Below, in pieces: positions 5,100-53,488 of a DNA stretch of 64,000 nucleotides. Below the pieces are notes generated by a model that was not told the DNA's origin, searched no databases, and was given only the letters and a program-made list of their open reading frames with translations. Numbering within the stretch: the first letter of the stretch is position 1; every line of letters begins with the position of its first letter. The position numbers were made by a program, and so were the translations under genes. Origin of the DNA: a virus (lineage: Duplodnaviria > Heunggongvirae > Uroviricota > Caudoviricetes); the IMG/VR virus record IMGVR_UViG_3300048670_001104. One strand, 5' to 3'.

Positions 5100-7754
5100 C
5101 TACACTAAAATGTTCCTACGGGGAAATACTAGATATTTATCGAATGCGTCTGTGTTGGTATAGATATCAACAGGTGCTTCGAATCGCATGCTAGTGCTGT
5201 CAAATGTGGTTGCTTCTCCGGACCCTACCACAAAATCAAACTCTGCTCCGGTGCCAGATCCCACAATGTTGGTTCCTGTGATGTTGGTGTATGTGTCACC
5301 GTCACTGAACAACGGTGCAGTTCCCACAAGATTCAGTATGGTGATGGCACCGGTGGTTGTGTTGATATCTTGTACTGTGATGGTCACACTGTTTAGTACA
5401 TCGGTACCGCCAAGGTCGCTGCCTGCAATCAAGATACGATCACCAATTTTGTAACCAGTTCCGGCGTTTACAAACGCATCAACTTCGTAGTGCAACACCA
5501 GATCAAATGTGGTTTCTGCCGGCGCTGGCACCCAGGCACCTGATGTGGAGTCGGCAATGGGATCCCAATGTATGCTGAGTAATCTATCCAGTTCATATCT
5601 GTCAACTTCAAAGTCCACAAGATTGAGTTGTTGCCCAAATTGTGTGCGAATATTGTAGGCCACTTGGCCTGATGCGCCAGGGTGACAATATGCGATCACC
5701 CAGGCTGGTGTGAATCCCAGTACCTTGCCATCTGCTTGCTTGCTCAACATCCACAGTGGTAAGAGATTGCTTATCTGCCCCACCACGTCTATCACTTGAT
5801 CTCGCATGTTGGGCAAGCTGTTGGGATACACTGTGGTGATTTCTGTGCTGTCACCTGCATTGATGGGATACGGCAGAGTGACCTGTTTGCTCACACTGAT
5901 TCCGTCATTGTTCACAAGATCATCTTGTACGGCACTGTAGACCACTTCGTAGACCACATCACCAGTGACTGGATCCAGGGCCTGTGCTGTTTTGATTTCG
6001 CCCAGTATGAGATTTTTCCAATAATGATTTTTGATCAAACTGCTGATATACAATTCATAGGTTGAACTGGTGAGTCCAAAACAATGATTGTATATGACCG
6101 AAGTGGCTATGCCAAAGTTGGGATCTTGTGGTCTGAAGATGAGATCAGATCTAAAGATATCGGAATTCTGTATCAGTTGATTTATCAAGGCACGACTGGT
6201 GTACGGAGGCATGGCCTTGATGTAGAGATTCTCATAGGGCTCATTGTACTCTCGCAGCACTTTCACTGTGAAGGTCTTGAACACCGACACATACCCATCA
6301 ACTGAATAGGCATTCACAGTGAATGTGTATTGGGTGTCAAATGTGGTCTCTTGTGGCGACTGTATCAGTGTGGTACGCAATTCTTTGTCAAATGTGGTAG
6401 AGCCCAGGTCCACAGCAAATGTGTTAAAACTCACTCTACCGGCAATGTCGCCCGAGGGCAACAGTTGCAGACCTTGCGGTAATTTGTTGTACACCCCGGG
6501 CACATAATCGGGTGGAGGAATGGCCCCGGGTCTCAATTGATATTGCAGACTCCTGCCACCGGTGTTCACGGCCTCTACTTTTAGTAAACTGGTGGATCCA
6601 TTGATGATGCTGCCCAGATCAGCAGCAGTGAGCCAGATCACCTGTGTTTCTACCTGTCCTGTCAGCGTGATACTAAAGTAGTAAGGATCGGATTTTATCA
6701 CATCATCACTGGTGTTGATCAGATAGATGGCAAAATTGTATGTGATTTCCGAAGCACCTAAATCGGGCAAACGACCATACAACCAGCCTGTGAATGGATC
6801 AAGAGTGGTGCCCGGAGGAAGTTGCAATCCTGCACCGGGGTACTCAAGATATTCTATGATATAATCACCAAAGGTCAGTCCTTGGAATTGATATGCCCAG
6901 AAATTATCTGCTCGCACACGGCCCAGATCACTGGGTTGTGCATTGAGCAGGAATGGTAGATAATTTGGAGTCTGAGATGCATCCACAAAGGTGTCATCGG
7001 CAGTGATATCCGTGGTACTGGCTTGTAAGGTGGTTCTGCTGTACACAAAGATCTCATAGGTACGCAGGTCACTGGCCTTGCCGTCGGAGACTTCCAGTGT
7101 GAATTGATAATTGGTGTTGGGACTGTTGATCACAAAATCAAACGGATATTGATCAAACGCTATGATATTTGGTGATGTCCGGTCAAATCCACCATTGATG
7201 GTGACAGCATTTATTGGTATGATATATCCAGTGATCAGGCCCCGAGTACTGATACTCAGCCCCGGAGGAAGCTCACCGCTGATCAAGGTTATCACTGTGA
7301 CGTCAGCAGGATCTTGCTCAGAGATTTCGATCTGTATGGAATCAATGGGTGTGCCATCATAAAAAGTACCCACATTACCAGCAGGGGTCACAAACACCGG
7401 TGGGTTTTGTCCTGTAACTGTGAGATCGAATGTTCGATCTGCCAGCCGATCGATCACTACTCGTCCTTGTACTATTTTTTCTGTATAAGCACGTACCGCA
7501 AAGGTGCTGGTGACGGCTCTTGATACCGGTGCCGGGACACCTTGCACACTGGCAATGGCCTGCGGCACACCCGAAATCAATCCGGTTCGACTGCATTGTA
7601 TTCCTGGGGGCAATTGACCGGCCAACAAGGTATAATAAACTTCGTTGCCTTCAGGATCAGACGGGTCATAGGCCAACAAGGGCACCTGATAAAAAATACC
7701 TTCCGGTATGGTGCCCAGGCTACCTACAGGAGTGACCCAGACTGGTTGTGCCAT
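5100..7754 (-). CDS. large virion structural protein (baseplate / fiber-associated)
   Basis: 884 aa with repeated PPG(I/L)S/T-type segments (ELPPGLSISTRGLITG, GQLPPGIQCSRTGLISG). Its RBS is embedded in the VVGRM codons of the upstream fiber gene. Confidence 0.65.
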   Translation of the reverse strand: MAQPVWVTPVGSLGTIPEGIFYQVPLLAYDPSDPEGNEVYYTLLAGQLPPGIQCSRTGLISGVPQAIASVQGVPAPVSRAVTSTFAVRAYTEKIVQGRVVIDRLADRTFDLTVTGQNPPVFVTPAGNVGTFYDGTPIDSIQIEISEQDPADVTVITLISGELPPGLSISTRGLITGYIIPINAVTINGGFDRTSPNIIAFDQYPFDFVINSPNTNYQFTLEVSDGKASDLRTYEIFVYSRTTLQASTTDITADDTFVDASQTPNYLPFLLNAQPSDLGRVRADNFWAYQFQGLTFGDYIIEYLEYPGAGLQLPPGTTLDPFTGWLYGRLPDLGASEITYNFAIYLINTSDDVIKSDPYYFSITLTGQVETQVIWLTAADLGSIINGSTSLLKVEAVNTGGRSLQYQLRPGAIPPPDYVPGVYNKLPQGLQLLPSGDIAGRVSFNTFAVDLGSTTFDKELRTTLIQSPQETTFDTQYTFTVNAYSVDGYVSVFKTFTVKVLREYNEPYENLYIKAMPPYTSRALINQLIQNSDIFRSDLIFRPQDPNFGIATSVIYNHCFGLTSSTYELYISSLIKNHYWKNLILGEIKTAQALDPVTGDVVYEVVYSAVQDDLVNNDGISVSKQVTLPYPINAGDSTEITTVYPNSLPNMRDQVIDVVGQISNLLPLWMLSKQADGKVLGFTPAWVIAYCHPGASGQVAYNIRTQFGQQLNLVDFEVDRYELDRLLSIHWDPIADSTSGAWVPAPAETTFDLVLHYEVDAFVNAGTGYKIGDRILIAGSDLGGTDVLNSVTITVQDINTTTGAITILNLVGTAPLFSDGDTYTNITGTNIVGSGTGAEFDFVVGSGEATTFDSTSMRFEAPVDIYTNTDAFDKYLVFPRRNILV

Positions 7755-9028: not shown

Positions 9029-12000
9029 TTATAATCTTCCTACTACGATTTCTATCATGCCTTCGGTGCCGTTGAAATCTTCTAATGCCTTGCCGATCAC
9101 AGAACCTAATATGGGATTGTGCTCTGCTCGTGCTTGACCGTCACCTGTTGCGACCATCATGTCACCTTTGGCTACTGTGCCAACCACTGATGTTGGCACA
9201 CGACCGGTCAGAGCCACTGCTATTGTGTGGTCGCCTTGCAGTCCAGAATTCATCACATGTGCTGGGTTGGTACTAACCACACCGGCTACTCTGCGACTGG
9301 AATCTGTTGTACTTATTGTTACTTCTTGCGTGCCACCAAATACTACCACAGTACCTGGCTCGTAAGCAGCATCCGTGGTATACATCTCTGCCAAGTCAGC
9401 ATACAGTGCTGTGGTGGCTTGTGCAAATATTTTGTTGAAGTAGGTACTGGATGACCCGATGTTGCCCACACCATTGCCTGCACCGTTGGTGATAGCAGTG
9501 GTCGCGCTGTTGATGGTTAAGCCAGTCAATGTGCCTACTGAGGTGATATTGCCCTGTGCTGCTGTGGTCACGGTTCCAGCAACCACAGCAGTAGTGGCAT
9601 TAGCCACTGTGCCTGACACATTGGCACCTGGGATACTAGTGAGACCTGCACCAGAACCGTTGAATTGGCTTCCGGTCACTGTGCCAGTCGCAGATATCAA
9701 GCCACCTGTATTAACATTACCGGCAGTCAAGTTACCGGTTAAACTGGCACTGGTTGTGAGGATCGTACCCACAATAGTACCAATGATATTGCCACCACTG
9801 ATGTTGCCTGTCCCGGAAATGATTCCAGATCCAAATAATATGTTACCACCAGTTACATTACCTGTGGTTGTGAAACTACCAGCAGTGACGCTGCCTGTGC
9901 CCGAAATTGCTCCACCGGAACCGGTTGTGGTGATGCCAGCAGCAGTGACATTACCCACCGCACTAACACTTGATCCGGTATTGACATTACCAGTAGCTGT
10001 TACTGATCCGGTAACTGATGCACCGGTGCTGAGAAACACTGCTATATTGGAAATTCCGCCCACGGTGACGATCGCAGAGCTATTGGCCACTGGGATACTG
10101 ATAGCACTGGTTCCGTTGGCAATACCGTTGGCTGTGCTGGTCACAGTAAGACCGGTAAGACTAGCACCGTTACCTAGGATATATGACCCGATCACGTTGC
10201 CAATGGCGCTGATGTTTGTTGCAGCAGTGACGTTGCCACTTACTGATACCTGTGTGCCGGTGAAACTGGCAGCATTCACAATGTTAGTGGCAATCACATT
10301 TTGGGCATTCAGGTTACCAGTCAAGCTGGCACTGGTAGTGGCAATGGTGCCCACGATTGTGCCTATGATATTGCCACCACTGATGTTGCCTGCGGCCGAT
10401 ATTGCACCACCGGTCAATATGTTAGCACCGGTAATATTACCACTCAATGACATCTGTGTGCCGATATAACTTGATGCACTTACAATATTACCGGCAATCA
10501 CACTGCTGGCATTCAAGTTACCGGTCAAGCTGGCACTGGTTGTGGCAATTGTTCCTACAATAGTTCCTATAATATTGCCGCCGGTGATGTTGCCTGTGGC
10601 ACTTATCTGACCACTGGTTCTTAAATTACCAGCATCAACATTACCACTCACTGATACCAATGTACCGGTATGACTTGCTGCATTTACAATATTACCGGCA
10701 ATCACACTGCTGGCGGTCAGGTTGCCAGTCAAGCTGGCACTGGTTGTGGCGATGGTGCCCACGATTGTGCCTATGATATTACCACCGGTGATGTTGCCGG
10801 TTGCCGATATCACGCCGCCGGTCAACAAGTTACTGCCTGTGATATTGCCGCTTACCGATAACAACCCACCGGTGAAGCTGGCTGCATTAGATATTGTGGT
10901 AGCAATCACATTGTTGGCGTTCAAGTTACCAGTCAAGCTGGCACTGGATGTGGCAATGGTCCCCACAATGGTGCCAATTATGTTACCGCCACTGATGTTG
11001 CCGGTGGCACTGATCACGCCACCGGTTAACAAGTTGCCACCCGTGACATTGCCACTCACACTCACTGATGTGCCGGTGAAACTGGCTGCATTCACAATGG
11101 TGGTGGCAATCACATTGTTGGCATTCAAGTTACCGGTCAAACTGGCACTGGTTGTGGCAATGGTACCTAGAATTGTACCAAAGATATTTCCACCGGTGAT
11201 GTTGCCTGCTGTGCTGATGATACCAGATCCAGCCAATAAGTTGCCGCCTGTGATATTGCCCGTGGCACTGACTTGCGCTCCTGTGGTCAAGTTGCCGCCG
11301 GTGACATTGCCTGTGGCAGTGACCAATCCGCCAGTTCTTACATTTCCGGCATCAATATTACCAGTCAAGCTGGCACTGGATGTGAGGATAGTGCCAGTGA
11401 TGGTACCGTTGATATTACCACCTGTGATGTTGCCCGTGGCACTGATCTCGCCACCGGTCAATATGTTGCCACCGGTCACATTGCCTGATACAGAAACTGC
11501 GGTTCCTGTATGTGCGCCTGCAACCACGTTTCCGCTGGTGCTGATTGTGTTGGTTGAGCTAATGGGAGATGTGGTGTTGAGACTGCTCAACACATTACCA
11601 CTCAAACTCAATACAGCAGCGTTCAAATTACTACCTGTGACATTGCCACTGGTATTGACATTGCCAGCAGTCAAATTACCTGAAAGACTGATGGCTGCCA
11701 CAAGAATAGTGCCGGTGATGTTGCCATTGATATTGCCGCCGGTGATGTTGCCTGTGGCACTGATCACGCCACTGGTTAACAAGTTGCCACCTGCGACATT
11801 GCCACTCACTGACACAATGGTACCGGTATGACTGGCTGCATTTATAATATTGCCAATGCTTGCATTGTTAGCAGTGATGTTGCCACTTAAACTGGCACTG
11901 GTTGTGGCAATAGTTCCCACGATTGTGCCAATGATATTGTTACCAGTGATGTTGCCAGTGGCACTTATAACACCGCCGGTCAATATGTTACCACCGGTCA

Positions 12001-13834
12001 CATTGCCCGATACTGATACCACCGCACCGGTATGGCTGGCCACGTTCACTATGGTGGTGAACATGCCATTATTGGCAGTGACATTGCCTACAACCGATAC
12101 GGCTGTGCCCAACAAACTGCTTCCGGTAATGTTACCTGTGGCTGTGATCTGACCAGCAGTTTGTAAGTTACCTGTGGCAGTGACCAGGCCGGCAGTGCGT
12201 AGGTTTCCTGCTTGAACATTACCTGCGGTTGACATCAATCCCGAAGTGTTGAGATTGCCGCCATCGATATTTCCAGTCACTGACACTATGGTTCCAGTTA
12301 AACTAGCAGCATTAAAAACAGTCGATATACTGAGATTGTTAGCATTGATGTTGCCCAACAGACTGATGCCAGTTGAGGTAAATGTGGCCACCGGAGTGAT
12401 ACCAGCCACAGCCACGGTTACATTTCCATTAGCGGCCACAGACACGCTTGAATTGCCGTTGATGATTTGACTACCGGTGCTGATAGAGAGATTGGTAATA
12501 TAGGCACCGTCACCCACAAAATACGCACCGGTACTGATGTTTCCGGTAACACTCACTGTCGACCCTGTATGGCTGGCTGCATTGACAATGGTGGTGGCTA
12601 TGACATTGTTGGCTGTGACATTGCCAGTCACGCTTACTACAGCACCTGTGTGACTGGCCACATTCACAATGTTAGTGAACTGGCCATTATTGGCAATCAC
12701 ATTTCCAGTGACCGATAATGTGGGAGCAGTGAAACTAGTCGTGACACTGATATTGTTGGCTTGGATATTGCCCGACACTGAAACAAGCCCGCCTGTGAAG
12801 CTGGCTGCATTGGCCCGTGTGGTGGCAACGATATTGTTGGCAGTGACATTGCCCGAAGTTGATATCTGTCCTGCTGTGTTTAAATTGCCGCCAGTGATGT
12901 TGCCTGACACTGACACCACGGCACCTGTGTGACTGGCCACGTTCACGATGTTAGTGAACATACCATTATTGGCAGTGACATTGCCGGTCACACTCACCAG
13001 GCCACCGGTATGGCTGGCAGCATTGGCAAGTGTGGTGGCAAAGATATTGTTGGAAGTGACGTTGCCACCAATACTAACACCGGACGCAGTGAACACAGCC
13101 ACATTGTTTCCAGTCACCACCACAGACACATTCGAATTCAGATCCACATTGACGTTGCTGGTGCCGTTGATAATGTAACTACCGGCACCAACTGATAGAT
13201 TAGACAGTTGGCTACCATCACCGATGAAAAAGCCACCGGTCACAACATTGCCTGCTGCTGACACTATATTAGAAGCATTGACATTGTTGGCCTTTACATT
13301 GCCAGTGGATGAGATGGTTCCTGTAACCGTGGCCACATTGGCAGCCGAGTCAAAAGTAAATCCTGCTGCGGCACCGGCATTGCCTGCGTTATTGAACAAC
13401 ACCTGTGTGTTAGAACCAGGAACTGTGAGATTACCAGCAATATTACCTGCAAATGTTCCAATGAAATACCCACTGGTGTTGATATTGCCTGTAGAAAAAA
13501 TCTGGCCGCCGGTGTTGAGGTTGGCCCCGGTGATGTTGCCTGTGGCTGAAATATTTCCAGCCAAGATGTTGCCGGCGCCACCGGTGATGTTTAATGAATT
13601 GGCATTTAGAATATTTGCAGTGACATTGCCAGATGCTGTGACCGACACCACGCTGACTGCGTTGGTCCACGATCTCACTCCATTGGTTCCCAGTGCAAGC
13701 AGGTCATTGGCATTGGTGCCGTTGCCGAGATTTGGTTCGGCTTGATTTAATCCCAAGAATTCATAACGATCGGCTGTGAGATTGCCCAGATCGGTTACTG
13801 GCACCCGTCCACTGATAAGTTTGATTGAGCTCAT
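9029..13834 (-). CDS. giant repetitive tail-fiber-like protein (1601 aa)
   Basis: Dozens of GN-rich units (VSVSGNVTGGNLLTGGVISATGNITGGNIIGTIVGTIATTSASLTGNLNANNVIA...). C-terminal module shared with 7759..8868. Confidence 0.8.
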   Translation of the reverse strand: MSSIKLISGRVPVTDLGNLTADRYEFLGLNQAEPNLGNGTNANDLLALGTNGVRSWTNAVSVVSVTASGNVTANILNANSLNITGGAGNILAGNISATGNITGANLNTGGQIFSTGNINTSGYFIGTFAGNIAGNLTVPGSNTQVLFNNAGNAGAAAGFTFDSAANVATVTGTISSTGNVKANNVNASNIVSAAGNVVTGGFFIGDGSQLSNLSVGAGSYIINGTSNVNVDLNSNVSVVVTGNNVAVFTASGVSIGGNVTSNNIFATTLANAASHTGGLVSVTGNVTANNGMFTNIVNVASHTGAVVSVSGNITGGNLNTAGQISTSGNVTANNIVATTRANAASFTGGLVSVSGNIQANNISVTTSFTAPTLSVTGNVIANNGQFTNIVNVASHTGAVVSVTGNVTANNVIATTIVNAASHTGSTVSVTGNISTGAYFVGDGAYITNLSISTGSQIINGNSSVSVAANGNVTVAVAGITPVATFTSTGISLLGNINANNLSISTVFNAASLTGTIVSVTGNIDGGNLNTSGLMSTAGNVQAGNLRTAGLVTATGNLQTAGQITATGNITGSSLLGTAVSVVGNVTANNGMFTTIVNVASHTGAVVSVSGNVTGGNILTGGVISATGNITGNNIIGTIVGTIATTSASLSGNITANNASIGNIINAASHTGTIVSVSGNVAGGNLLTSGVISATGNITGGNINGNITGTILVAAISLSGNLTAGNVNTSGNVTGSNLNAAVLSLSGNVLSSLNTTSPISSTNTISTSGNVVAGAHTGTAVSVSGNVTGGNILTGGEISATGNITGGNINGTITGTILTSSASLTGNIDAGNVRTGGLVTATGNVTGGNLTTGAQVSATGNITGGNLLAGSGIISTAGNITGGNIFGTILGTIATTSASLTGNLNANNVIATTIVNAASFTGTSVSVSGNVTGGNLLTGGVISATGNISGGNIIGTIVGTIATSSASLTGNLNANNVIATTISNAASFTGGLLSVSGNITGSNLLTGGVISATGNITGGNIIGTIVGTIATTSASLTGNLTASSVIAGNIVNAASHTGTLVSVSGNVDAGNLRTSGQISATGNITGGNIIGTIVGTIATTSASLTGNLNASSVIAGNIVSASSYIGTQMSLSGNITGANILTGGAISAAGNISGGNIIGTIVGTIATTSASLTGNLNAQNVIATNIVNAASFTGTQVSVSGNVTAATNISAIGNVIGSYILGNGASLTGLTVTSTANGIANGTSAISIPVANSSAIVTVGGISNIAVFLSTGASVTGSVTATGNVNTGSSVSAVGNVTAAGITTTGSGGAISGTGSVTAGSFTTTGNVTGGNILFGSGIISGTGNISGGNIIGTIVGTILTTSASLTGNLTAGNVNTGGLISATGTVTGSQFNGSGAGLTSIPGANVSGTVANATTAVVAGTVTTAAQGNITSVGTLTGLTINSATTAITNGAGNGVGNIGSSSTYFNKIFAQATTALYADLAEMYTTDAAYEPGTVVVFGGTQEVTISTTDSSRRVAGVVSTNPAHVMNSGLQGDHTIAVALTGRVPTSVVGTVAKGDMMVATGDGQARAEHNPILGSVIGKALEDFNGTEGMIEIVVGRL
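9990..12010. repeat. tandem ~204-nt (68-codon) repeats inside the giant fiber gene
   Basis: The motif caagctggcactgg recurs at 10322, 10526, 10730, 10934 (period 204) and then at ~11148, ~11376, ~11889 with drift. These repeats generate long shadow ORFs on the plus strand. Confidence 0.8.
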
Positions 13835-14197: not shown

Positions 14198-16561
14198 TTA
14201 TGGCACTTCTTGCAAGGCCAAAATGTAGGGGGTCATGATCGCAAACAAGGATCTGTAAAAGTCATCACCACTCACTGTTCCTGTTGCTTGATTTACTGTA
14301 AACCCTGACCCTACTTTAAAATTACCTTTGTGGTCAGTGCTGGTAAAAGTGACTACACCACCATTTACTTCCACCACTTCTTGGTCTGACACTGGTATAC
14401 CACCATATTGTGGTAATGCTGTGGCAGGATTGGTGCCTGCACCAATATATTCAAATGTATGTGCGCTGGCAATAATAGCACTGCGGGTGTAGAATTCCAC
14501 ACCGGTGTTGGGCACTAGATTGGCTGAGAATGTTTCCTGGATGACCACAGTGGTATTACCTGCCGACGGGGTCTCGGGCAGTATGGTATCAATGGTGTAA
14601 TAGTTTATGGGAAAAAGATTCACATCCCAAGAACTGTATGTGCCTGATCCGTTTGTATCAGTTGCATCAACCACCAGAGCGCCTGTTCCGGAATTATATG
14701 ATTGCACTGTGCCGGTCAAGAAATTCACCGAATCATAGTCTATGATCACGTTTTGTCCTGCCGAATACGATAATCCTGTTCCTATGGTCAACGCAGCCAC
14801 CTGTACCGCAATGGTAAGTGTGGTGCTGCTGGTGGTGACATAATCGGCATCATTTATGACCATGACCGTATTCACGTTAGGTCTTACATTGCTCAAACTG
14901 CTGTTGCTGATCACAAAATTTCCACCAGTGCTGTAACCCACGGTATTGCCCGAAGTTTGTAGTGGCCCAATACCTTCAGATACCAATCCAAAATTACCAA
15001 TTGAACAATCTGATCCATTCAATGTACAGAAAGCACCGTATCTGACTCTAAGACCTATATCGCATGCAATAGGATATATGTTCACATGCTGCCCGTAGGC
15101 GCTGTTTAACATATCTACACCAATGCCTCCGCGGTTGATAATGGTGTAAAAGCCCAAGTGCATGGCCTTGGTACTGATATTACTCACAAGACTACCGTCA
15201 ATGCGACAACCAGTTCCTGTGGTTGTAGAGGATGTGATATTCTGTATGTAAGGACTTACAAACACATCCTGTGTGGGTGTGGCAGGATCATAAGCGAAGG
15301 CAGCTCCCAAGTAATCTTTTAAAGTAACACCCCATACATAAGTGCCATTGGTCATGTAGAACATGTCAGTGGCCACATTCAGTGGCAGTATATTTACAGT
15401 TCTAAGATTATCGCCCATCAATGCAGATTTTGGTGGGATAGTGATGGGATTATCTTCAACATATGTGCCCGATGCCACACGCACAGATATATTGCCACCC
15501 AATGCGGTGGCGGCTGTCATTGCAGCCTTGATGGTAAGGAATGGAGTGTTCAATCCACCATTGTTTGAGTCGCTGCCGTTCTTGGCCACATAGAATGTGT
15601 TGGACACGGATGGGATAGGACCCAGCACATTACCACTGGCACTGATTATGCTGGTGTTGATATACTGTGATAGAATGAAATCAGCATCCAGTTCATTATC
15701 AATTGTGACAGTGGCCGAGAATCTCACATCTGGGGTCACTGTGATCTGGCTGCTGTCTCCAGAGTCAATCAAGGTGGTAAAGATATTACCATACACGCCC
15801 TGATTACCTATGACATTGTTGCCAGTGATATTGCCCCCGGCTGTGACCACACCGGCTGTGGTGATATTACTGCCAGTGAGATTGCCAGTGGCGGACACAC
15901 GACCACCGGTATTGAGATTACCGCCTGTGATATTACCCGATGCACTTATCAAACCGGTCACATTTAATCCGCTTGTGGTGAACACAGCAACATTTGATGT
16001 GCCTGCGATTGTGACATTGGCATTGCCGTCCGATGCAAAAAATCCCAATTCACTGCTGCCATAAGCTATGGCATTTCTAGTAATATTACCTGCCAATGTG
16101 GCATTACCTGTGATATTGAGATCACCAAATACAGTCACAAGATTTGGTGATACCTGTAGAGTAAGATTGCCTTGAACTACAGAATTGATCACTCCATCGA
16201 TTGTGGGAATATTGACATTGCTGGTTCCATACACAATAGACCTGGCTTGTGAAATATCTGTGAGAAAATAGCCATTTCCTATAAAATAGTTTCCAGTGGA
16301 TATGTTACCCACAGCCGAAACAGTTTTTCCAATGATTCCGGTGTTGGTAATGGTCAATACATTGGATACGTTGCCCACACCTGCGTAGATGTTGCCATCC
16401 GGTACTGGAATGATTACATTACTGGAGCCATTGGTGATTTTGGTAGTGCCAACCTGGGAGAGGTTGATAAAATTGTTGTTTATCTTTATATAGGCAGTGC
16501 GTAACGGATCACCGTTGCCATCATCCGGTGCAGCACCAACATCGACTAATTCATAGGTCAT
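14198..16561 (-). CDS. structural fiber/spike-like protein (787 aa)
   Basis: GN-rich repeats (GNITGGNLNTGG) plus a central non-repetitive region. GAGGAT RBS. TAAATA motif ~30 nt upstream. Confidence 0.7.
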   Translation of the reverse strand: MTYELVDVGAAPDDGNGDPLRTAYIKINNNFINLSQVGTTKITNGSSNVIIPVPDGNIYAGVGNVSNVLTITNTGIIGKTVSAVGNISTGNYFIGNGYFLTDISQARSIVYGTSNVNIPTIDGVINSVVQGNLTLQVSPNLVTVFGDLNITGNATLAGNITRNAIAYGSSELGFFASDGNANVTIAGTSNVAVFTTSGLNVTGLISASGNITGGNLNTGGRVSATGNLTGSNITTAGVVTAGGNITGNNVIGNQGVYGNIFTTLIDSGDSSQITVTPDVRFSATVTIDNELDADFILSQYINTSIISASGNVLGPIPSVSNTFYVAKNGSDSNNGGLNTPFLTIKAAMTAATALGGNISVRVASGTYVEDNPITIPPKSALMGDNLRTVNILPLNVATDMFYMTNGTYVWGVTLKDYLGAAFAYDPATPTQDVFVSPYIQNITSSTTTGTGCRIDGSLVSNISTKAMHLGFYTIINRGGIGVDMLNSAYGQHVNIYPIACDIGLRVRYGAFCTLNGSDCSIGNFGLVSEGIGPLQTSGNTVGYSTGGNFVISNSSLSNVRPNVNTVMVINDADYVTTSSTTLTIAVQVAALTIGTGLSYSAGQNVIIDYDSVNFLTGTVQSYNSGTGALVVDATDTNGSGTYSSWDVNLFPINYYTIDTILPETPSAGNTTVVIQETFSANLVPNTGVEFYTRSAIIASAHTFEYIGAGTNPATALPQYGGIPVSDQEVVEVNGGVVTFTSTDHKGNFKVGSGFTVNQATGTVSGDDFYRSLFAIMTPYILALQEVP

Positions 16562-16613
16562 AGATACATATCCTCTGGTGTATTTACCAGAGCTGTGTAT
16601 CTAGTGTATTATG

Positions 16614-16934
16614 CTAAACGGAGAAACTTGATCCGCAGCCGCAGGTGGTTTTTGCAGCGGGATTATTGATCACAAAACTGGATCCCATGACATCTTCACG
16701 GTAATCTATTGTGCTGTCTTGTAGATATTGCATGCTCATGGCATCTACTACCACACGAACTTCTTCATAGTTAAAGTCAAAATCATCATCATTTTGATCT
16801 TCGTCAAAGGTGAATCCATAACTGAATCCCGAACATCCACCACCCTGCACAAATACTCTGAGCTTGAGATCAGGATTGGCTTCTTCGGCAATGAGTTCTC
16901 GCAGTTTGCTAACTGCTCCAGTTTCTAGTTTCAT
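16614..16934 (-). CDS. A-type Fe-S cluster carrier (IscA/HesB/ErpA family)
   Basis: [11 protein letters not shown] and the C-terminal CGCGSSF cysteine motif, typical of HesB/IscA. Confidence 0.85.
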
Positions 16935-16946
16935 AATTGATTCCGT

Positions 16947-17489
16947 TTATAGTCTTTCTGAGCACACATCCCAGTTGATGATGCGCCAGATATTGTTGAG
17001 ATATTTCTCTTTGTCCCACTGATAGTCTGTGGCCCACACATGCTCCCACCAGTCAATAAGTACGCATATATCTGTACGCACAGCATGATTTGCGATGGTC
17101 TTGATCTCTCCACCAGTGCTGAGATATACCCAGCCGGATCCTTGGATCTTCATGGCTTTTTCTTTCACAGCGTCCTGGAATGCTTCATAACTCTTGAACT
17201 TGCGTTCAATCAGTTCTAGCACAGCACCACGCGGGCGATTTGTGCCCTTGGGCGGTTGTAGTTGTGGGAAGAATTTGTTGTGTAAGAAACTGCCAGCACG
17301 GTTGAAATCAGGATCACCTTCGCCGGCATTGTAGCGTTTGGCATAGCCCGTGGCCAGATGCCCGTAGTGATAGTTGATACTGTCTGCACTCAGCACAGGT
17401 GCCAAATCATCTGGAGAATAGGGCAGTGGAGTGGTTTCCAACTTGGTTGGACGAGTGGTGGCTTCTATGAGATCAATATGTTCACGCAT
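16947..17489 (-). CDS. Fe/Mn superoxide dismutase
   Basis: LPYSPDDLAP..INYHYGH, FLHNKFF, GSGWVYL and DWWEHVW motifs. All four metal ligands of Fe/Mn SOD (His, His, Asp, His) are present. Confidence 0.82.
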   Translation of the reverse strand: MREHIDLIEATTRPTKLETTPLPYSPDDLAPVLSADSINYHYGHLATGYAKRYNAGEGDPDFNRAGSFLHNKFFPQLQPPKGTNRPRGAVLELIERKFKSYEAFQDAVKEKAMKIQGSGWVYLSTGGEIKTIANHAVRTDICVLIDWWEHVWATDYQWDKEKYLNNIWRIINWDVCSERL

Positions 17490-17497
17490 GTGAGTAT

Positions 17498-17716
17498 TTA
17501 GCGGCGGCGAGTTATACGACCTCTGGTGAGATCATAAGGTGAGAACTCAATCAACACACGGTCACCCAGTAGGATTTTAATATCATGTTTACGCATGCGG
17601 CCAGAGATGTATCCGATCACGGGTTTTGTTACACCATCTAACTGTATACGGAACATGGTATTGGGCAGCACTTCTAGTACCTTGCCTTCTAATTCTAGTG
17701 TTTCTTCTTTGGCCAT
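17498..17716 (-). CDS. infA: translation initiation factor IF-1
   Basis: [68 protein letters not shown] aligns almost residue-for-residue with bacterial IF-1. Start set at the internal Met (ORF track 17498..17869). Confidence 0.85.
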
Positions 17717-17723
17717 TCGTGCA

Positions 17724-18176
17724 TTACTTAGCGAAACTGATCTCCGCGGTAATCTTCTGTAGCCGATCATAGCGGAAACTGCGCCAGGCATTCTGATCCA
17801 GATCATACACACGCTGTGTGACAGGATCAGGTTCCTTGCGTAGCTTTCGGCTTTCTGCAAGCCCATCAATGTTCACAGTAGAACTAGCCTCAATCTCTGT
17901 GGGCACAGGTTTGGGAGGCGCAGGTGGAATTCGACTTCGGTCCAGAGTGCATCGCATGTCTCGTACAGTGCCATCTGATTTCACAAACTGCACAGTGACT
18001 ATGGTGTTGCCCAGCAGATTCTGCACCCAGCCACGGATCTGTTTTCGGTCAGCCTCGTCGGCTTCCTGATATTGTGTGCCCGGCTGACCTTTTAGCAGCC
18101 GGAACACTTCTGCTTTTTCCCAATCTAATGTATCCATAACATCTCCTCTAAAAGTTAACGACCGTTTTTTCTTCAT
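17724..18176 (-). CDS. hypothetical protein
   Basis: 150 aa. ATGA overlap with the upstream paralog gene at 18173-18176. Confidence 0.5.
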
Positions 18177-18391
18177 GACCATCTCAGCAGAAACATTGTG
18201 TAATCTCTATTGTTTTCCCAAATACACCAATCCATGTTATCATCCGCTGGTATATCGAATTTACCCAACAATTCTCTCGCTGCTGCTCTTCGATATTCCG
18301 TTGGCAATTCCATCAGATCAGCAACAAATGGTGCCAATCGACTTTGCAATCTTGGAAACTTGGTCAGTTTATAAAATTGCATTTTAATCAT
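18173..18391 (-). CDS. small protein of FLL(K/R)W(S/Q) paralog family (copy 5)
   Basis: C-terminus ...[18 protein letters not shown]. Start trimmed to the Met whose ATG overlaps the upstream stop (ATGA). Confidence 0.5.
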   Translation of the reverse strand: MIKMQFYKLTKFPRLQSRLAPFVADLMELPTEYRRAAARELLGKFDIPADDNMDWCIWENNRDYTMFLLRWS

Positions 18392-18582
18392 TGCCACCTC
18401 AACAAGAACCATGCAGCATGTTTTTCCTCGCGGAACTCGAACACACCTTCGCCCATATACCCCCACCCATCGTCGATATGCCTACCGAATTGTTTCGAGC
18501 ACCATTCAACACAAGGTGTCCACCCTTGATTGACCAAAGGGGACATCACGCTGACCACATACCATCCGTTGACCGGGTTCAT
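18388..18582 (-). CDS. small protein of FLL(K/R)W(S/Q) paralog family (copy 4)
   Basis: ...EWCSKQFG...EKHAAWFLLRWQ. ATGA junction at 18579-18582. Confidence 0.5.
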   Translation of the reverse strand: MNPVNGWYVVSVMSPLVNQGWTPCVEWCSKQFGRHIDDGWGYMGEGVFEFREEKHAAWFLLRWQ

Positions 18583-18800
18583 GACCACCTCATCAAGAAC
18601 ATGGTCAGGTCCTGTGGTCGTTTGAAATACCACCGGCCGTTGGAATAACTATAGGTTTCGTCTGGGAAAGTCTCTGAACACCAGGCGCTTTGATCCCACA
18701 ACTCACGGTCGGGTGTGAGCGCATGGGCCGCCGGGGTGCTATGAGTCAGTCGAACTCTGCGGCGACCGTAATCAACATTCAATACAGGATTCTCTGTCAT
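18579..18800 (-). CDS. small protein of FLL(K/R)W(S/Q) paralog family (copy 3)
   Basis: ...AWCSETF...RPQDLTMFLMRWS. ATGA junction at 18797-18800. Confidence 0.5.
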   Translation of the reverse strand: MTENPVLNVDYGRRRVRLTHSTPAAHALTPDRELWDQSAWCSETFPDETYSYSNGRWYFKRPQDLTMFLMRWS

Positions 18801-19051
18801 GACCATTTCAACAGGAACCACACGTAATCTGCTTCATCACGGAACCATAAATGTTGTCCGTTTGTGTACCAACGTTCGTCGGGCAGACTCATTCTCTTTT
18901 TGGGACCATCCAGATGCGTAATGCTGCTGGTAGTTTGGCCAAACTGTTCGTCACACCACCGCACTTGTGTGCTCCATTCTTTTCCACCATTGGGAACAAG
19001 TATAGTATAATAAGGTCGGCCGTATACTGTGCTTTGTTCGTTTGTGTTCAT
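18797..19051 (-). CDS. small protein of FLL(K/R)W(S/Q) paralog family (copy 2)
   Basis: ...RWCDEQFG...DEADYVWFLLKWS. ATGA junction at 19048-19051. Confidence 0.5.
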   Translation of the reverse strand: MNTNEQSTVYGRPYYTILVPNGGKEWSTQVRWCDEQFGQTTSSITHLDGPKKRMSLPDERWYTNGQHLWFRDEADYVWFLLKWS

Positions 19052-19341
19052 GACCACTTCAATAAAAACATGGTTCTGTCTGCTTCATTGCGGAACCAAT
19101 ACTTACGATCACTGCCCACCCAGAGTCCATGTTCGGTCATCCAATCACCGTTGCCGAATGTGATCACTACCCAATCTCCCATCTTATCCCACTCCTTACG
19201 AGAGTAGTTGCATGGCTGGACCCAATAGGGCCATCGAGTTTGATTGTCAGCATAACCAGTTTCAAGGCGTTTCATGGTGAGTTGGGCTATAGTATCCGTT
19301 ATTTCATCTACCCACTTGGCGGTGAATCCCTTGTTGGTCAT
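19048..19341 (-). CDS. small protein of FLL(K/R)W(S/Q) paralog family (copy 1)
   Basis: ...NEADRTMFLLKWS. ATGA junction at 19338-19341. Confidence 0.5.
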   Translation of the reverse strand: MTNKGFTAKWVDEITDTIAQLTMKRLETGYADNQTRWPYWVQPCNYSRKEWDKMGDWVVITFGNGDWMTEHGLWVGSDRKYWFRNEADRTMFLLKWS

Positions 19342-19727
19342 CGACGCATTGAGGCGGCGTCTATTGCTTGTTGCTGGTTGAACACCGGCTGCAAACAAGA
19401 TTTATGTAGGACAGTCACTCCAATGATCTCAGTGCCTGTATAAACTTTCACATTGGGCGTGGTGTCATGCCCTGCTGTGACCCTGCTGGGGATGTGATGA
19501 GTGTTGGTGCGACCCACTGGCGTTTCCAGTCGATACACCAAGGGCTCTGCTTTCATAGCACGGGCTTGTTTTTTCTTTTCTGCTTCCACACCTTGACGTT
19601 TCAGCAGTTCCTTCCACTCAGTATCAAGTTCGCGGGCCTTCTGGGCTTCAGCAGCATTACGGTATTTGAACTTGCCCTTTTTCTTGCCGTTGAGACTTAG
19701 GGCAGGGCCGCACATGTGCATGGTCAT
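19338..19727 (-). CDS. hypothetical protein (first gene of the promoter-driven operon)
   Basis: 129 aa. GGAG RBS. Directly downstream of the promoter at 19754..19782. Confidence 0.5.
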   Translation of the reverse strand: MTMHMCGPALSLNGKKKGKFKYRNAAEAQKARELDTEWKELLKRQGVEAEKKKQARAMKAEPLVYRLETPVGRTNTHHIPSRVTAGHDTTPNVKVYTGTEIIGVTVLHKSCLQPVFNQQQAIDAASMRR

Positions 19728-20749: not shown

Positions 20750-20777
20750 ATTATACACTCACCAGTCGAATTTGCAA
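20750..20777 (-). promoter_or_regulatory. sigma70-type promoter TTGCAA-N16-TATAAT
   Basis: Plus strand gtgtattatacac ... tttgcaaacc. Upstream of the hydrolase gene. Confidence 0.55.
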
Positions 20778-21550
20778 ACCGGGATCGGCAACATCTTGTG
20801 TAGATTTGCGGCGCGGATCTCACGGTATCGGCGAAGATTTTTCTTTTCTTGTGCGGAGTCTACACCACAGTTGGTTTCGGCTTGAGTCATAGCCAGTTCC
20901 AATTCAGGATAGGTCATGCCCAGTTGATCTTGATCGGTGCGGCCATCTGTCCACAATCCATCTGTAGGGGGTGCATCAATGATCTCTTGTGGCAGGCCCA
21001 GTTCACGACCCATGTCCCACACCGCAGTTTTCATGCAGTCACCAATGGGGCTGATATCCACACCGCCGTCGCCATACTTGGTAAAAAAGCCCACACCAAA
21101 GTCTTCCACTCGGTTGCCTGTGCCCACAACAATACCGCGGTTGCATTGTGCGATCTGATACAGAGTCATCATACGCAATCTAGCACGACTGTTGGCACTG
21201 GCCAACTGGTATGTTCCGTGTGTGTCATCTTCGATATCACAGTAGGGATCTACCTTCTTTTCAAATGCAGCAAACACAGGAGTGAGATCCATACTCATGT
21301 GTGTGACTGTGTCTGCATGGCGTTCCAGCAACCAACTGGCCTGCATGGAACTGCAATTGTCCAAGGTTCGGTTTTGCCGGATGGGCATCTGCACCACGAT
21401 GGTTTTGAGTCCAGTTCTAGCACACAATGCACTCACCACACTACTATCAATACCACCAGAGATACCCACCACCAGTGTGTTGATTTTGGCACTGCGGGCA
21501 TAGCTCTTGATCCACTTCACGATGGTGGTGATGCGTTGTTTGGGTGTCAT
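20759..21550 (-). CDS. nadE: NH3-dependent NAD+ synthetase
   Basis: PP-loop GISGGIDSS. GTGNRVEDFGVGFFTKYGDGGVDISPIGD...LGLPQEIIDAPPTDGLW matches NadE. Start set at the Met forming an ATGA junction with the upstream stop. Confidence 0.85.
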   Translation of the reverse strand: MTPKQRITTIVKWIKSYARSAKINTLVVGISGGIDSSVVSALCARTGLKTIVVQMPIRQNRTLDNCSSMQASWLLERHADTVTHMSMDLTPVFAAFEKKVDPYCDIEDDTHGTYQLASANSRARLRMMTLYQIAQCNRGIVVGTGNRVEDFGVGFFTKYGDGGVDISPIGDCMKTAVWDMGRELGLPQEIIDAPPTDGLWTDGRTDQDQLGMTYPELELAMTQAETNCGVDSAQEKKNLRRYREIRAANLHKMLPIPVCKFDW

Positions 21551-22128
21551 AGTTTTGGCTTGGGCAACTTCTTCAAGGCTTCCCACATCTTGGTTTTCTC
21601 TTGGCATTTCTTCTCCAGTTTTCTATAGCGTTCGCCCAGGCGGCGTAGGTCGTCCCATTCCTTTTCCAGTTCAGGATTGGGTGTGAGGATGTTCAGTCGT
21701 TGTTCCACCTGTTCCATCCACTTGTTCATGCTCTTGCCGTTGATCCGGATGTCGGCCTTTTCGCCTTTTATATCGATCTGCCCGGATTGTTCAACCTTCA
21801 TGTTATAGTCGGTGGCGGATGAGCCGATATTCAAGCCGGTGCCGGTAGTGGTCAGCGTTTGATAAGGAGAGTTGTTGGTATACACATTCGGACTCAGGCC
21901 GATATGACCCACCTGATGTATTCCACCTGTGGCACTCTGGGCAGCAGTGATTTGACCCCAGGGCATACTGGACTCTCTGCTGGATATGTTCCACTCATCA
22001 TACTCCTGCAGGTTCTTCACTGCCGACGCAAGACCTCGCATGCGGCTCCTCATGTTGGCCTCGGCCTCCTGAACCTTGCTATTGAACTCTTTCGAGGTCA
22101 ACGGACCAATAGTCGCCGGGTCGATCAT
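21547..22128 (-). CDS. hypothetical protein
   Basis: 193 aa with a coiled-coil-like C-terminus. ATGA junctions on both sides. Confidence 0.5.
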   Translation of the reverse strand: MIDPATIGPLTSKEFNSKVQEAEANMRSRMRGLASAVKNLQEYDEWNISSRESSMPWGQITAAQSATGGIHQVGHIGLSPNVYTNNSPYQTLTTTGTGLNIGSSATDYNMKVEQSGQIDIKGEKADIRINGKSMNKWMEQVEQRLNILTPNPELEKEWDDLRRLGERYRKLEKKCQEKTKMWEALKKLPKPKL

Positions 22129-40791: not shown

Positions 40792-41367
40792 TCAGATAGA
40801 GGATATCTGATCGCAGATGTTGTAGGCCAATGCTTCTTCTGCTGTGAGCCAAACATCGTGCGGTGGTAACAAGGTCTTCCTGATTTCATCTTCACGCAAT
40901 CCTGTGCATTCTCGATAGTGTGCTACCATGCGTTTTTGTGTGAGTTCAAACTCCTTGATGGTGGCAAACAATTCATGCACCTTGCCATCTGTGCCCCAGC
41001 TGAACTGATGACTCATGATTGAGGTATTGGGAGTCAAGGTTCGTCGGCCAGGAGATCCTGCCAAGAAGATCATGAGCCCTGCTGATTGTATCTGGCCCAG
41101 CCCCACAGTCTTGATGTAGATCTTGCTGCTACGCATCACGTCAATCAGCGCAAAAGCGGCACTCATGTCACCGCCATCGCTACAGATCATCAACAGCAGT
41201 TCTCGTTTCTTTTTCTTGGCCACGAGATTCTCATGCAAGATCCATTCAATAACCGGGGCGATGGTTTCATTGCTCACATCGCCCATGAACACATACACAC
41301 CATGATCGTGTAAGGCATCATGGTGTGTGCGTTCTATGACTTCATTGCTGTCGGAATGAAGAGCCAT
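40792..41367 (-). CDS. ClpP-like protease subunit (second paralog)
   Basis: ICSDGGDMSAAFALIDVM...GQIQSAGLMIF (active-site Ser context) ...SHQFSWG (His) ...PHDVWLTAEEALAYNICDQI. Confidence 0.78.
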   Translation of the reverse strand: MALHSDSNEVIERTHHDALHDHGVYVFMGDVSNETIAPVIEWILHENLVAKKKKRELLLMICSDGGDMSAAFALIDVMRSSKIYIKTVGLGQIQSAGLMIFLAGSPGRRTLTPNTSIMSHQFSWGTDGKVHELFATIKEFELTQKRMVAHYRECTGLREDEIRKTLLPPHDVWLTAEEALAYNICDQISSI

Positions 41368-47401: not shown

Positions 47402-48010
47402 ATGACCATATTAGAAACACTGCGTGAGCAACGCTGGGACGATCATCGCTATTACCATCACAGCCGTATCAATCAATTCTTACATTTACTCAGTGCGTTA
47501 TCATTCATCGTGGCCTATGTGTATCTGATCATCGATCCTGTGATCAGTGCTTACATCGCCTGGTTGTTCTCAATGACCACACGCCAAGCCGGACATTTCT
47601 TCTTTGAACCCACGGACTACGACACCTACAATCAGGCCACACAAGATCACAAAGAGGCTATCAAGATTGGATACAATCTCAAACGCAAACGAGTACTGAT
47701 CGCTTGCTGGTTGGCTGTGCCGTTGCTGGCATATTTTGATGCGGCATTGTTTAACTTTGTGATGCCTGATGCTGCTCCAGACACCTTGATAGATAGAATT
47801 GGCTGGGGTTGGTTGTGGTTGGGTCTGGCTGCTGTGGTGTTCCGTATGATACAACTCACTGCCATACAAAGCCGTAGAGTCGCACTAGTGTGGTGTATCA
47901 AGATATTAACAGATCCATTCCATGACGCTGTGATCTATCGCAAGAGCCCGATCTATTTGTTGCGTGGGCAACTGATTGATCCTGACCTACGCCAAGACTA
48001 CGAAGATTAA
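47402..48010 (+). CDS. membrane protein (possibly DUF962/Mpo1-like)
   Basis: 202 aa. HxxxxNxxxH-like N-terminal region and multiple TM helices. AAGGAAA RBS. ATAAATA 17 nt upstream. Confidence 0.45.
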   Translation: MTILETLREQRWDDHRYYHHSRINQFLHLLSALSFIVAYVYLIIDPVISAYIAWLFSMTTRQAGHFFFEPTDYDTYNQATQDHKEAIKIGYNLKRKRVLIACWLAVPLLAYFDAALFNFVMPDAAPDTLIDRIGWGWLWLGLAAVVFRMIQLTAIQSRRVALVWCIKILTDPFHDAVIYRKSPIYLLRGQLIDPDLRQDYED

Positions 48011-49005
48011 AGTGGAGTAAGGTTGTCGCGGAATATCTGCCAGGCAGTCTGCCACGACCAGCGTTGGCTACCCGCTAACACTTGATCTCTATCCAACTGC
48101 AAACAACCAGTTATGGCATCGGCCAGGTCTTCATTCACAAATCCTGTCACACCCTGATCCACCACATCCAGTGGTCCTTGCACCGGATAAGCAGCCACTG
48201 GTGTGCCACAGGCCATGGCTTCGATCATCACTATGCCAAATGTCTCCCACTTGCTAGGAAACACAAACACATCAGCATCAGCATAGCATTGTGCCAGTGC
48301 ATGGCCAGTCTTGAATCCTTTGAACTCCACATCGGGATATAGTTTTTCCAGTCTAGCACGATCCGGGCCGTCACCTACCAACACTTTGCGAGCACCCGGA
48401 TAATTCAAACTGCAAAACGCATCCAGATTCTTTTCTATACTGAGTCTGCACACACATAACAGCACAGGGCCCGATCCTCTGCTGCCACGATAACCAGGAT
48501 TGAATACGGTTCTATCAACGCCACGGGTCCATGAGTTGATCTCACCCCAGAAGCCATGAGCTCGGAGTTCTTTCACCATGCTGTCCGTGGTTGTGAGCAC
48601 ACGACCCGAGTGCTTGTGGAACCACCGCACATACTTCCAGGTGATGCTTTCAGGTATCCTCAAAAATTTATGTAAGGCTTCAGGGTACTTTGTATGGTAA
48701 GCAGTATTATACCTACGATAGTGCCGGTCAAGATAAAATCTAGCGTAGAGACCCAAAGGACCTTCTGTGGCGATGTGTATATAATCCGGAGCCATCGTTC
48801 TAATCTTCTGCCCGATCGCCCAGGGAATCGAAACTTTAACTTCAGGGTAGCCTGGGCAATCAAAAAATACGAACTCCATGGGAGTAAGATATAACACACG
48901 ATAGCCATCCAGAACCGCACATGCCTCAATATTCTTGTATGTGGTAACAACGCCATTGATCTGCTCCGGCAAGTTATCTGTTATTATCAGTATCGTCTTG
49001 ATCAT
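48007..49005 (-). CDS. glycosyltransferase family 1 (GT4-type)
   Basis: VFPSKWETFGIVMIEAMACGTPVAAYPVQG (E-x7-E-like GT1 signature region). Confidence 0.8.
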   Translation of the reverse strand: MIKTILIITDNLPEQINGVVTTYKNIEACAVLDGYRVLYLTPMEFVFFDCPGYPEVKVSIPWAIGQKIRTMAPDYIHIATEGPLGLYARFYLDRHYRRYNTAYHTKYPEALHKFLRIPESITWKYVRWFHKHSGRVLTTTDSMVKELRAHGFWGEINSWTRGVDRTVFNPGYRGSRGSGPVLLCVCRLSIEKNLDAFCSLNYPGARKVLVGDGPDRARLEKLYPDVEFKGFKTGHALAQCYADADVFVFPSKWETFGIVMIEAMACGTPVAAYPVQGPLDVVDQGVTGFVNEDLADAITGCLQLDRDQVLAGSQRWSWQTAWQIFRDNLTPL

Positions 49006-52970: not shown

Positions 52971-53488
52971 ACAGTTCCGGTTAGTTGTAATGTGTATCTA
53001 TTGGTTTGACCCATGTTGGCCGCCAGGTGCAAAAAGTCATCGTGCCATGATACCCAATCTCCGGCACGCCATCCTGTGACCGGAGTTCCGTTCATTTCTA
53101 GGTAGTGGCCGCTGGACCAGTCTTCCAGGAATACTATGGTCCTCACCACCGAATGTGTAGTTTCCAATCCATGTATCAGCTTGAATCTATCATAGGTATC
53201 TCTATGTGCAGGTAACACACAGCCCGGTATCATGCGATAGAAACTCCATGAGAATCTTTCAAACGGGAATACATCGCGAAATGAGTCTACCCAGGTAGGT
53301 TCACTGTTACGCATGTCATACATGTCTCCGGTGAATCTACTTTGAGAGAAGCCTAACCTACGCCATTCTGTGAGACTGGAAGAGTCGTTGAATGGTTCGT
53401 TGATGTAGGCTAGATCTCTGTGCCCGAGACCCCACCAAGGATCCACGTGCCCCTGTGCCCAGGTGTTATTTTGCGCGGGTGTTACCAT
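52967..53488 (-). CDS. hypothetical protein (cupin/hydroxylase-like, tentative)
   Basis: LPAHRDTYD...H spacing reminiscent of HxD...H metal sites. Confidence 0.4.
   Translation of the reverse strand: MVTPAQNNTWAQGHVDPWWGLGHRDLAYINEPFNDSSSLTEWRRLGFSQSRFTGDMYDMRNSEPTWVDSFRDVFPFERFSWSFYRMIPGCVLPAHRDTYDRFKLIHGLETTHSVVRTIVFLEDWSSGHYLEMNGTPVTGWRAGDWVSWHDDFLHLAANMGQTNRYTLQLTGTV

Follow-up and report, generated by a model that had tools for sequence, protein, structure and literature searches.

A minimal superoxide dismutase and an ErpA-type iron-sulfur carrier as a candidate iron-cofactor defence pair of jumbo phages

We analysed a stretch of 64,000 nucleotides (the window) from IMG/VR virus record IMGVR_UViG_3300048670_001104. 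The DNA is that of an uncultivated jumbo phage and carries side by side a gene for an Fe/Mn-type superoxide dismutase (SOD; 16947-17489) and a gene for an iron-sulfur (Fe-S) carrier of the ErpA type (16614-16934). A sequence-only reading had placed a SOD-like and an IscA/HesB-type open reading frame here, and both are indeed found at these positions on the minus strand. The pair is a genuine and coherent accessory module, though modules of this kind were known before in broad terms. We further consider it probable, with considerable room for doubt, that the two genes act as an accessory (‘auxiliary metabolic’) pair whose products jointly defend iron cofactors during infection.

In the proposed mechanism, the SOD would turn superoxide into O2 and H2O2 inside the infected cell, and the lowered superoxide level would spare exposed [4Fe-4S] clusters and mononuclear iron sites. 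ErpA would accept Fe-S clusters at the host ISC/SUF scaffolds and pass them to apo-proteins under aerobic conditions; E. coli is reported to require this A-type carrier under aerobiosis (PMC5040110). Together the two proteins would limit oxidative cluster loss and speed re-insertion while the infection proceeds. The likely beneficiaries would be exposed [4Fe-4S] clusters and perhaps mononuclear-iron enzymes, whether encoded by the host or by the phage, with the radical S-adenosylmethionine (radical-SAM) enzymes inserted at the same locus in related phages as plausible phage clients.

A minimal His-type superoxide dismutase

The larger of the two genes opens with an ATG and encodes 180 residues, which we regard as probably a metal-binding, enzymatically active, minimal His-type Fe/Mn SOD. 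The C-terminal domain profile PF02777 (Sod_Fe_C) is covered over its full length (positions 1-102) with 72.2 bits (E 4e-20, threshold 20.9), and a PDB sequence search matched cambialistic and Fe SODs of Porphyromonas and Bacteroides (E ~1e-21). An AlphaFold2 model built from a 53-sequence alignment reached a predicted local distance difference test (pLDDT) of 94.3 and a predicted template modelling score (pTM) of 0.88, and is of low confidence (pLDDT ~59) only in the N-terminal extension. When the model was compared with the PDB in Foldseek, the top 50 matches were all catalytic Fe/Mn SODs (query TM-score (TMq) 0.76-0.85, probability 1.00, identity about 24-29%), with the archaeal His-type structures 3ak2, 1wb8 and 1b06 among the best.

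The residues of the active site were located in a MAFFT alignment of 81 sequences that took in E. coli K-12 SodB and SodA and 76 diverse database representatives. The strings quoted in the sequence-only reading are all present (within INYHYGHL, SFLHNKFF and IDWWEH), and its claim of four conserved metal ligands is borne out: H41, H70, D146 and H150 fall into the columns of SodB H26, H73, D156 and H160. The gateway residue Tyr34 (Y49), Trp122 (W120), Trp158 (W148) and the dimer-interface residue Glu159 (E149) are retained as well. In the model the ligands lie on the expected elements, namely helices 35-54 and 60-76, the end of strand 141-146 and the beginning of helix 149-156. Neither the loss of a ligand nor a better match to a non-catalytic SOD-fold family was found; every ligand is kept and catalytic SODs rank at the top.

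One residue required a decision on register. H44, which directly follows ‘YHYG’, can be placed on the gateway residue His30 by a one-residue gap, as in the pairwise HMMER alignment. We rejected this placement and preferred to set H41, L45 and Y49 on one helix without a gap (i, i+4, i+8), a register supported by the MAFFT alignment of 81 sequences and by the continuous helix 35-54 of the model. H44 is thus neither a ligand nor the gateway residue, and the position of His30 is taken by Leu45.

The comparison of Fe- and Mn-discriminating residues, suggested in the sequence-only reading, returned neither of the classic patterns. SodB carries the Fe signature Gln69 plus Ala141 and SodA the Mn signature Gly77 plus Gln146, whereas the phage SOD has Gly at the N-terminal Gln site (G66) and a water-coordinating His at the C-terminal site (H135). 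The same combination characterises the His-type enzymes SodFM3 and SodFM4 of organisms such as Sulfolobus and Aeropyrum, with which the phage protein also shares the common two-domain fold and a metal site of three His and one Asp (Sendra et al. 2023, PMC10172142). SodFM3 enzymes have an HXXXHH motif whose last His is lost in SodFM4, and in both groups long N-terminal helices build a tetramer (PMC10172142). The phage SOD resembles SodFM4 in losing a His from this motif, and departs from both groups in losing the second as well as the third (H41-x3-L45-A46, with A46 at the position of His31). It further differs in its short hairpin of 28 residues instead of 46-54, in the loss of Tyr163 (A153), in an extra N-terminal helix and in a Leu (L144) at X(D-2), two residues ahead of the Asp ligand. 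Since the N-terminal helices are shortened, the tetramer interface is probably absent.

These features bear on metal preference, for which we predict an Fe-preferring or cambialistic enzyme as likelier than a Mn-specific one. Of 13 enzymes with a C-terminal His that were tested, most (9) prefer Fe, and the cambialistic SOD of S. aureus carries Leu at X(D-2), a position where the small residues Gly and Ala track Mn, and Thr and Val track Fe (PMC10172142).

The hairpin is the most strongly remodelled part of the protein. The spacing between the first and second ligand is 28 residues compared to 46 in SodB and 54 in SodA, which makes the hairpin 18-26 residues shorter, and the loop that joins β-strands 2 and 3 is about 8 residues shorter throughout the phage family. 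Across the aligned representatives His30 and Tyr163 are retained or lost as a pair. In Fe/Mn SODs a hydrogen bond between these two residues spans the dimer interface, and their paired presence or absence fits this cross-dimer contact. Short-hairpin forms with both residues exist among the representatives (P0159 and P0213), and for these two no match was found in IMG/VR. Given the short interface hairpin and the loss of His30 and Tyr163, oligomeric state and turnover of the phage SOD may differ from those of canonical SODs. At the other end of the protein, residues 1-17 form an extension with a predicted helix (2-11) that the monomer model leaves unanchored. An amphipathic extension of 15-20 residues recurs in most full-length family members (DIRxxIxLLE, here HIDLIE) and is absent from cellular SODs.

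The family is widespread among uncultivated phages. At least 220 loci in IMG/VR encode relatives of the SOD, and protein database contigs with such relatives reach 375 kb. Consequently, the statement that phage-encoded SOD is uncommon holds among cultured phages only. Across 79 distinct orthologues from phages, which range from 36 to 100% identity, the residues H41, L45, Y49, G66, H70, W120, H135, D146, W148, E149 and H150 never vary; X(D-2) is occupied by Leu in 77 phage sequences and by Ile in 3, and the Tyr163 position holds Ala, Ser, Val and others. Pairwise Nei-Gojobori estimates against the window genes (pairs with dS < 1.5) gave ratios of nonsynonymous to synonymous substitution (dN/dS) of 0.008-0.074 for SOD and 0.075-0.184 for ErpA. 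By these low ratios both genes are functional and under purifying selection, and SOD is the more constrained of the two. In this context, some ‘phage’ records that match a canonical-length SOD, ErpA or IF-1 look like misfiled bacterial sequence (Acinetobacter phage MD-2021a contigs, Salmonella enterica whole-genome shotgun contigs and ‘Staphylococcus phage SA 1306 Kay’ contigs of 137-282 kb); such records make SOD and ErpA seem commoner in phages than they are.

The nearest cultured relatives by protein are the PA5oct-group Pseudomonas jumbo phages (285-288 kb, 39%), followed by Vibrio phage 2.275.O (349 kb, 38%). Their proteins, PA5oct gp261 and NVP2275O_049, belong to the same short-hairpin family (38-39% identity) and share with the window SOD the ligands, the Leu at His30, the C-terminal His and the N-terminal extension. 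The GenBank annotation of gp261 carries a flag for detection by electrospray ionization tandem mass spectrometry (ESI-MS/MS), which indicates that a cultured relative expresses its SOD; the method was applied to virion preparations (PMC7318152). The family already bears the label ‘Fe-Mn family superoxide dismutase’ at the Joint Genome Institute, and a few GenBank jumbo phages label it ‘sodB’ or ‘manganese/iron superoxide dismutase’, among them the relatives of gp261 in phages MIJ3 and Callisto, annotated sodB. Our literature search found no paper that discusses or tests this phage SOD family, and a 2026 review on jumbo phages is silent on superoxide. Similarly, the SodFM survey sampled no viral sequences, and the words ‘phage’ and ‘virus’ do not occur in its text (PMC10172142).

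The ErpA-type neighbour and a conserved gene order

The second gene encodes 106 residues and is a bona fide ErpA-type carrier, for which cluster binding and transfer are predicted from family membership and from the putative ligands Cys34, Cys98 and Cys100. It matches PF01521 (Fe-S_biosyn; 60.2 bits, E 2.8e-16) and exceeds the cut-off of the NCBIfam ErpA equivalog NF010147 over its full length (residues 2-106; 164 bits, cut-off 117), while the cut-offs of the IscA and SufA equivalogs are not reached. In PHROGs it belongs with phrog_17776 (144 bits). In the PDB it matches H. influenzae HI1723 (2apn, E 8e-37), and like E. coli ErpA (YadR) and HI1723 it has the three cluster-binding cysteines. 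All three are kept throughout 67 distinct orthologues from phages, where the alignment has a single gap at C100. The assignment to a HesB/IscA-type carrier, made earlier from motifs that are both present (within QGGGCSGF and TCGCGSSF), can therefore be narrowed to the ErpA type.

Phage genes for Fe-S assembly are not new as such. Both erpA and iscU have been reported as auxiliary genes of phages (PMC9038755, PMC5332604). In contrast to the erpA and iscU of HMO-2011-type marine phages, ErpA is here fixed directly downstream of SOD in a jumbo-phage lineage.

SOD and ErpA are preceded on the same strand by a gene for translation initiation factor IF-1 (17498-17716, minus strand; 72 residues from an internal ATG), which scores 96 bits with TIGR00008 at a cut-off of 61. 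Eight nucleotides separate the IF-1 stop from the SOD start and 12 nucleotides the SOD stop from the ErpA start. Because SOD and ErpA are co-oriented, only 12 nucleotides apart and placed behind IF-1, co-transcription of the three genes is likely, and SOD and ErpA probably share a transcript. A scan for sigma-70 promoters and terminators covering 14-20 kb of the window found sites no more numerous than in shuffled sequence. The sole strong promoter-like site upstream of the block lies at 19782-19754 on the minus strand (TTGACC, 17 nucleotides, TATAAT, extended TG); with 11 of 12 matches to sigma-70, as a consensus match only, it heads the minus-strand array that ends in IF-1, SOD and ErpA. No clear Shine-Dalgarno sequence was seen by eye in the spacers ahead of the SOD and ErpA start codons, and PADLOC returned no defence-system match for the five genes of the block.

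To follow the arrangement across related phages, the 80 best SOD-anchored IMG/VR loci (77-96% identity, contigs up to 349 kb) were surveyed. ErpA lies just downstream of SOD in 75 of them and IF-1 just upstream in nearly all. Conversely, 63 of the 64 ErpA-anchored loci with enough upstream DNA have the SOD gene ahead of ErpA, so that the pairing holds from both sides in related phages. Among the 72 loci containing both genes, 55 have them less than 60 nucleotides apart. IF-1 is the most constant upstream neighbour of SOD across the clade, and the order IF-1, SOD, ErpA is conserved reciprocally in the fetched loci from jumbo-phage contigs of up to 349 kb; the trio persists where SOD identity has dropped to 36-42% (L089-L092). 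As a side observation, phage IF-1 in GenBank is otherwise found mainly in very large phages, such as Lak, Sinorhizobium phage Phosso and an uncultured 595-kb phage.

Both gaps of the trio are insertion hot spots across related loci. Genes for radical-SAM proteins with CxxxCxxC motifs occupy the gap between IF-1 and SOD in 12 loci, and the gap between SOD and ErpA in L032 only; they fall into two size classes (~375 and ~515 residues) plus a protein of 500 residues. Loci with insertions between IF-1 and SOD include L004, L006, L009, L010, L023, L025 and L088. The remaining cargo consists of GDS-motif hydrolase-like, HNH-motif and Cys-rich 79-residue proteins as well as unknowns, the GDS and HNH motifs having been read by eye; Pfam gave no family for the GDS-type insert.

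The proposed joint defence and its alternatives

Several observations weigh against a jointly acting SOD and ErpA. On the side of the enzyme, the N-terminal hairpin profile PF00081 reaches only 24.7 bits, below its threshold of 27, and aligns over positions 5-42 of 82, a shortfall explained by the truncated hairpin domain. Equally, the protein stays far below the cut-offs of the NCBIfam equivalogs for SodB (NF007832; 70.7 bits, cut-off 348) and SodA (NF008177; 33.7, cut-off 363), and the Leu for His30, the Ala, Ser or other residue for Tyr163 and the shortened hairpin alter the outer sphere and the dimer contact. On the side of the clients, a CxxxCxxC scan and four Pfam batches found no Fe-S client gene and no CxxxCxxC motif in the window, only a weak match to a 2-oxoglutarate (2OG)/Fe(II)-type hydroxylase, and no iscU or sufB scaffold gene was seen there. 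On the side of linkage, the two genes are separable: SOD occurs without ErpA in five loci of the clade, in L093-L099, in PA5oct and in Vibrio phage 2.275.O, and ErpA occurs without SOD in L175. No SOD-ErpA fusion was found among homologues of 215-631 residues, nor one of IF-1 and SOD, their extensions being unrelated. Finally, conserved gene order in related phages is in itself weak evidence of functional coupling.

The main alternative, which we hold to be possible and clearly less probable than joint defence, is that SOD and Fe-S carrier each work as annotated but independently, their adjacency being an inherited order at an insertion-tolerant locus. It would account for the genes being found alone (single-gene loci are L011, L048, L060, L072, L074, L175, PA5oct and Vibrio phage 2.275.O, to which L093-L099 can be added), for the absence of fusions, for the unrelated HNH-motif, GDS-motif hydrolase-like and unknown cargo of the hot spot, and for IF-1, a gene with no obvious link to Fe-S clusters, being conserved alongside equally strongly. 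What speaks against mere inheritance is that co-occurrence exceeds 93% in both directions and that the order is kept down to 36% SOD identity while the surrounding fibre and WYL_2 genes vary. Moreover, the only recurrent cargo type with an identified function is radical-SAM and thus [4Fe-4S]-dependent.

A second alternative, which we consider unlikely, concerns the short-hairpin proteins as a whole. They may represent a distinct Fe/Mn-SOD lineage in which the dimer bridge and the long hairpin were traded for the N-terminal helix, with the smallest known core (~160 residues), so far traced mainly to phage contigs. An altered oligomeric state or a docking partner would follow from the traded interface, and the position next to IF-1 (elsewhere ClpS, ribosomal protein S21 and IF-3) and before ErpA would reflect a dedicated role. 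That role would be to protect one particular iron-dependent step, in phage gene expression or in the maturation of Fe-S enzymes, against oxidative stress, and not general scavenging.

It is less probable still that the protein keeps its metal site and serves mainly a structural or regulatory purpose in a translation, transcription or proteostasis complex, or performs an altered redox chemistry made conceivable by the remodelled substrate funnel. SOD-fold proteins with such roles exist: mS42 and mS43 are structural proteins of the mitoribosome, and PAP4 and PAP9 are subunits of the plastid RNA polymerase. Chains of the latter two are among the PDB sequence matches of the phage SOD. The neighbourhood would fit as well, as translation or proteostasis genes adjoin the SOD in three divergent jumbo-phage lineages. 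IF-1 takes this place in the present lineage. PA5oct, Vibrio phage 2.275.O and L093-L099 lack the trio, and their SOD instead adjoins ClpS, S21 and IF-3 or structural genes. PA5oct has ClpS, S21, ClpX, a heat-shock protein and FtsH near its SOD, and Vibrio phage 2.275.O has IF-3, S21 and a ClpS-like gene; topoisomerase genes also occur among the neighbours in these two phages, neither SOD adjoins ErpA or IF-1, and a search of both genomes found no match to ErpA. The window itself encodes ClpX and ClpP. In addition, the joint loss of His30 and Tyr163 coincides with the gain of the conserved amphipathic N-terminal helix, a possible docking element that is modelled with a pLDDT of only ~59.

Catalysis is nevertheless better supported. 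The ligands, the water-coordinating His, Tyr34, the Trp residues and Glu159 are invariant, as selection for catalysis predicts. Catalytic enzymes match the phage SOD better (80 bits) than PAP4 and PAP9 do (57-64 bits), in keeping with the all-SOD list from Foldseek. Unlike the non-catalytic or structural PAP4/FSD3 and PAP9/FSD2, which are known from a gene-expression context, the phage protein scores toward the catalytic SODs and keeps every ligand, and the comparisons made gave no evidence of a partner complex. His30 mutants of human MnSOD reportedly remain active. Substitutions at this residue have been characterised by crystallography and kinetics (title of PDB 1n0n).

Cu,Zn-SODs with such a role are reported for some giant eukaryotic viruses. 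For the phage SOD, a place in the virion or among the ejected proteins, with action at entry or in shielding the particle, is nonetheless highly improbable: the gp261 flag from virion preparations and the tail-fibre/baseplate-like genes next to SOD in the window, L095 and L099 would suit it, but the same PA5oct flag marks thymidylate synthase, GTP cyclohydrolase, FtsH and DNA ligase and is therefore not specific for structural proteins, and SOD has no family in PHROGs and no structural-protein family match.

Genomic setting and significance

Around the trio, the window shows the gene content of a phage. A WYL_2/Sm-like SH3 domain protein (17724-18182, minus strand; 152 residues) is a frequent and less constant upstream neighbour. 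Further upstream, five tandem paralogous small open reading frames of 79-116 residues overlap slightly (18173-19398, minus strand); their alignment reveals the C-terminal motif F[RK]xExDxxMFLL[RK]WS with an invariant Trp, and they have no family match. Tandem genes with a similar ending, ‘F(K/R)L(T/A/V)W(G/M)’, adjoin SOD in L099. Downstream of the ErpA stop, a spacer of 52 nucleotides (16562-16613, minus strand) leads to the start of a fibre-like gene of 787 residues and contains an RNA hairpin of -21.7 kcal/mol (z -3.7; 1 of 200 shuffles equally good). The 3' arm abuts or runs into the fibre AUG and no T-tract follows. The hairpin may mark a boundary or regulatory point between accessory cassette and structural genes, or be a translational or processing signal. 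Long fibre-like open reading frames (14198-16561, 9029-13834 and 5100-7754) lie directly downstream of the block.

Elsewhere in the window, family matches identify an M23/LysM peptidase, UvdE, an N6/N4 DNA methylase and a clamp-loader-like AAA+ protein. ClpP (40792-41367) and ClpX with its zinc finger (58352-59557), a Bax1-I/YccA-type membrane protein (61606-62304) and an SPFH/Band-7 protein (62315-63115), all on the minus strand, form a proteostasis set that recalls ClpX, ClpS and FtsH of PA5oct, where the counterpart of the Bax1-I/YccA-type protein is annotated ‘FtsH-interacting’. Also on the minus strand are genes for an NAD synthase (20759-21607; 165 bits), the weakly matched Asp/Arg β-hydroxylase-like protein (2OG/Fe(II); 52967-53488), a UDP-glucose/GDP-mannose dehydrogenase (53466-54704) and a GT4 glycosyltransferase (48007-49005). 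No tRNA and no Rfam match were found in the window.

Megablast of 14-20 kb against GenBank phages gave no match, and hence the phage has no close cultured relative. Synteny with the window over NAD synthase, WYL_2, IF-1, SOD, ErpA and fibre genes was found in NZ_JBBAKG010000049.1 and NZ_JBBAKG010000036.1 (L109 and L110), separate contigs both binned in a metagenome-assembled genome of Haliscomenobacter sp. This hints weakly at a host among the Saprospiraceae (Bacteroidota), unless the phage contigs contaminate the bin; it is the only taxonomic pointer obtained, and nothing indicated a marine origin.

Viral SODs and phage genes for Fe-S assembly were known before, and no concept is altered by the present analysis. 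What is new is the recognition that jumbo phages have a lineage of minimal His-type SODs that lack His30, and that this lineage is firmly paired with ErpA and IF-1. If active, the enzyme would be a naturally minimised Fe/Mn SOD and would demonstrate that an ancient fold can do without some 20 residues of the hairpin, without the gateway His30 and without the Tyr163 bridge. Viruses, left unsampled by the latest family-wide survey, would thereby enter the SodFM classification as well. For the phages themselves, a SOD-ErpA pair that strong purifying selection maintains in at least 220 loci of uncultivated jumbo phages suggests that oxidation of iron cofactors limits the productivity of large phages in aerobic hosts, an idea that is directly testable in the cultured relative PA5oct.

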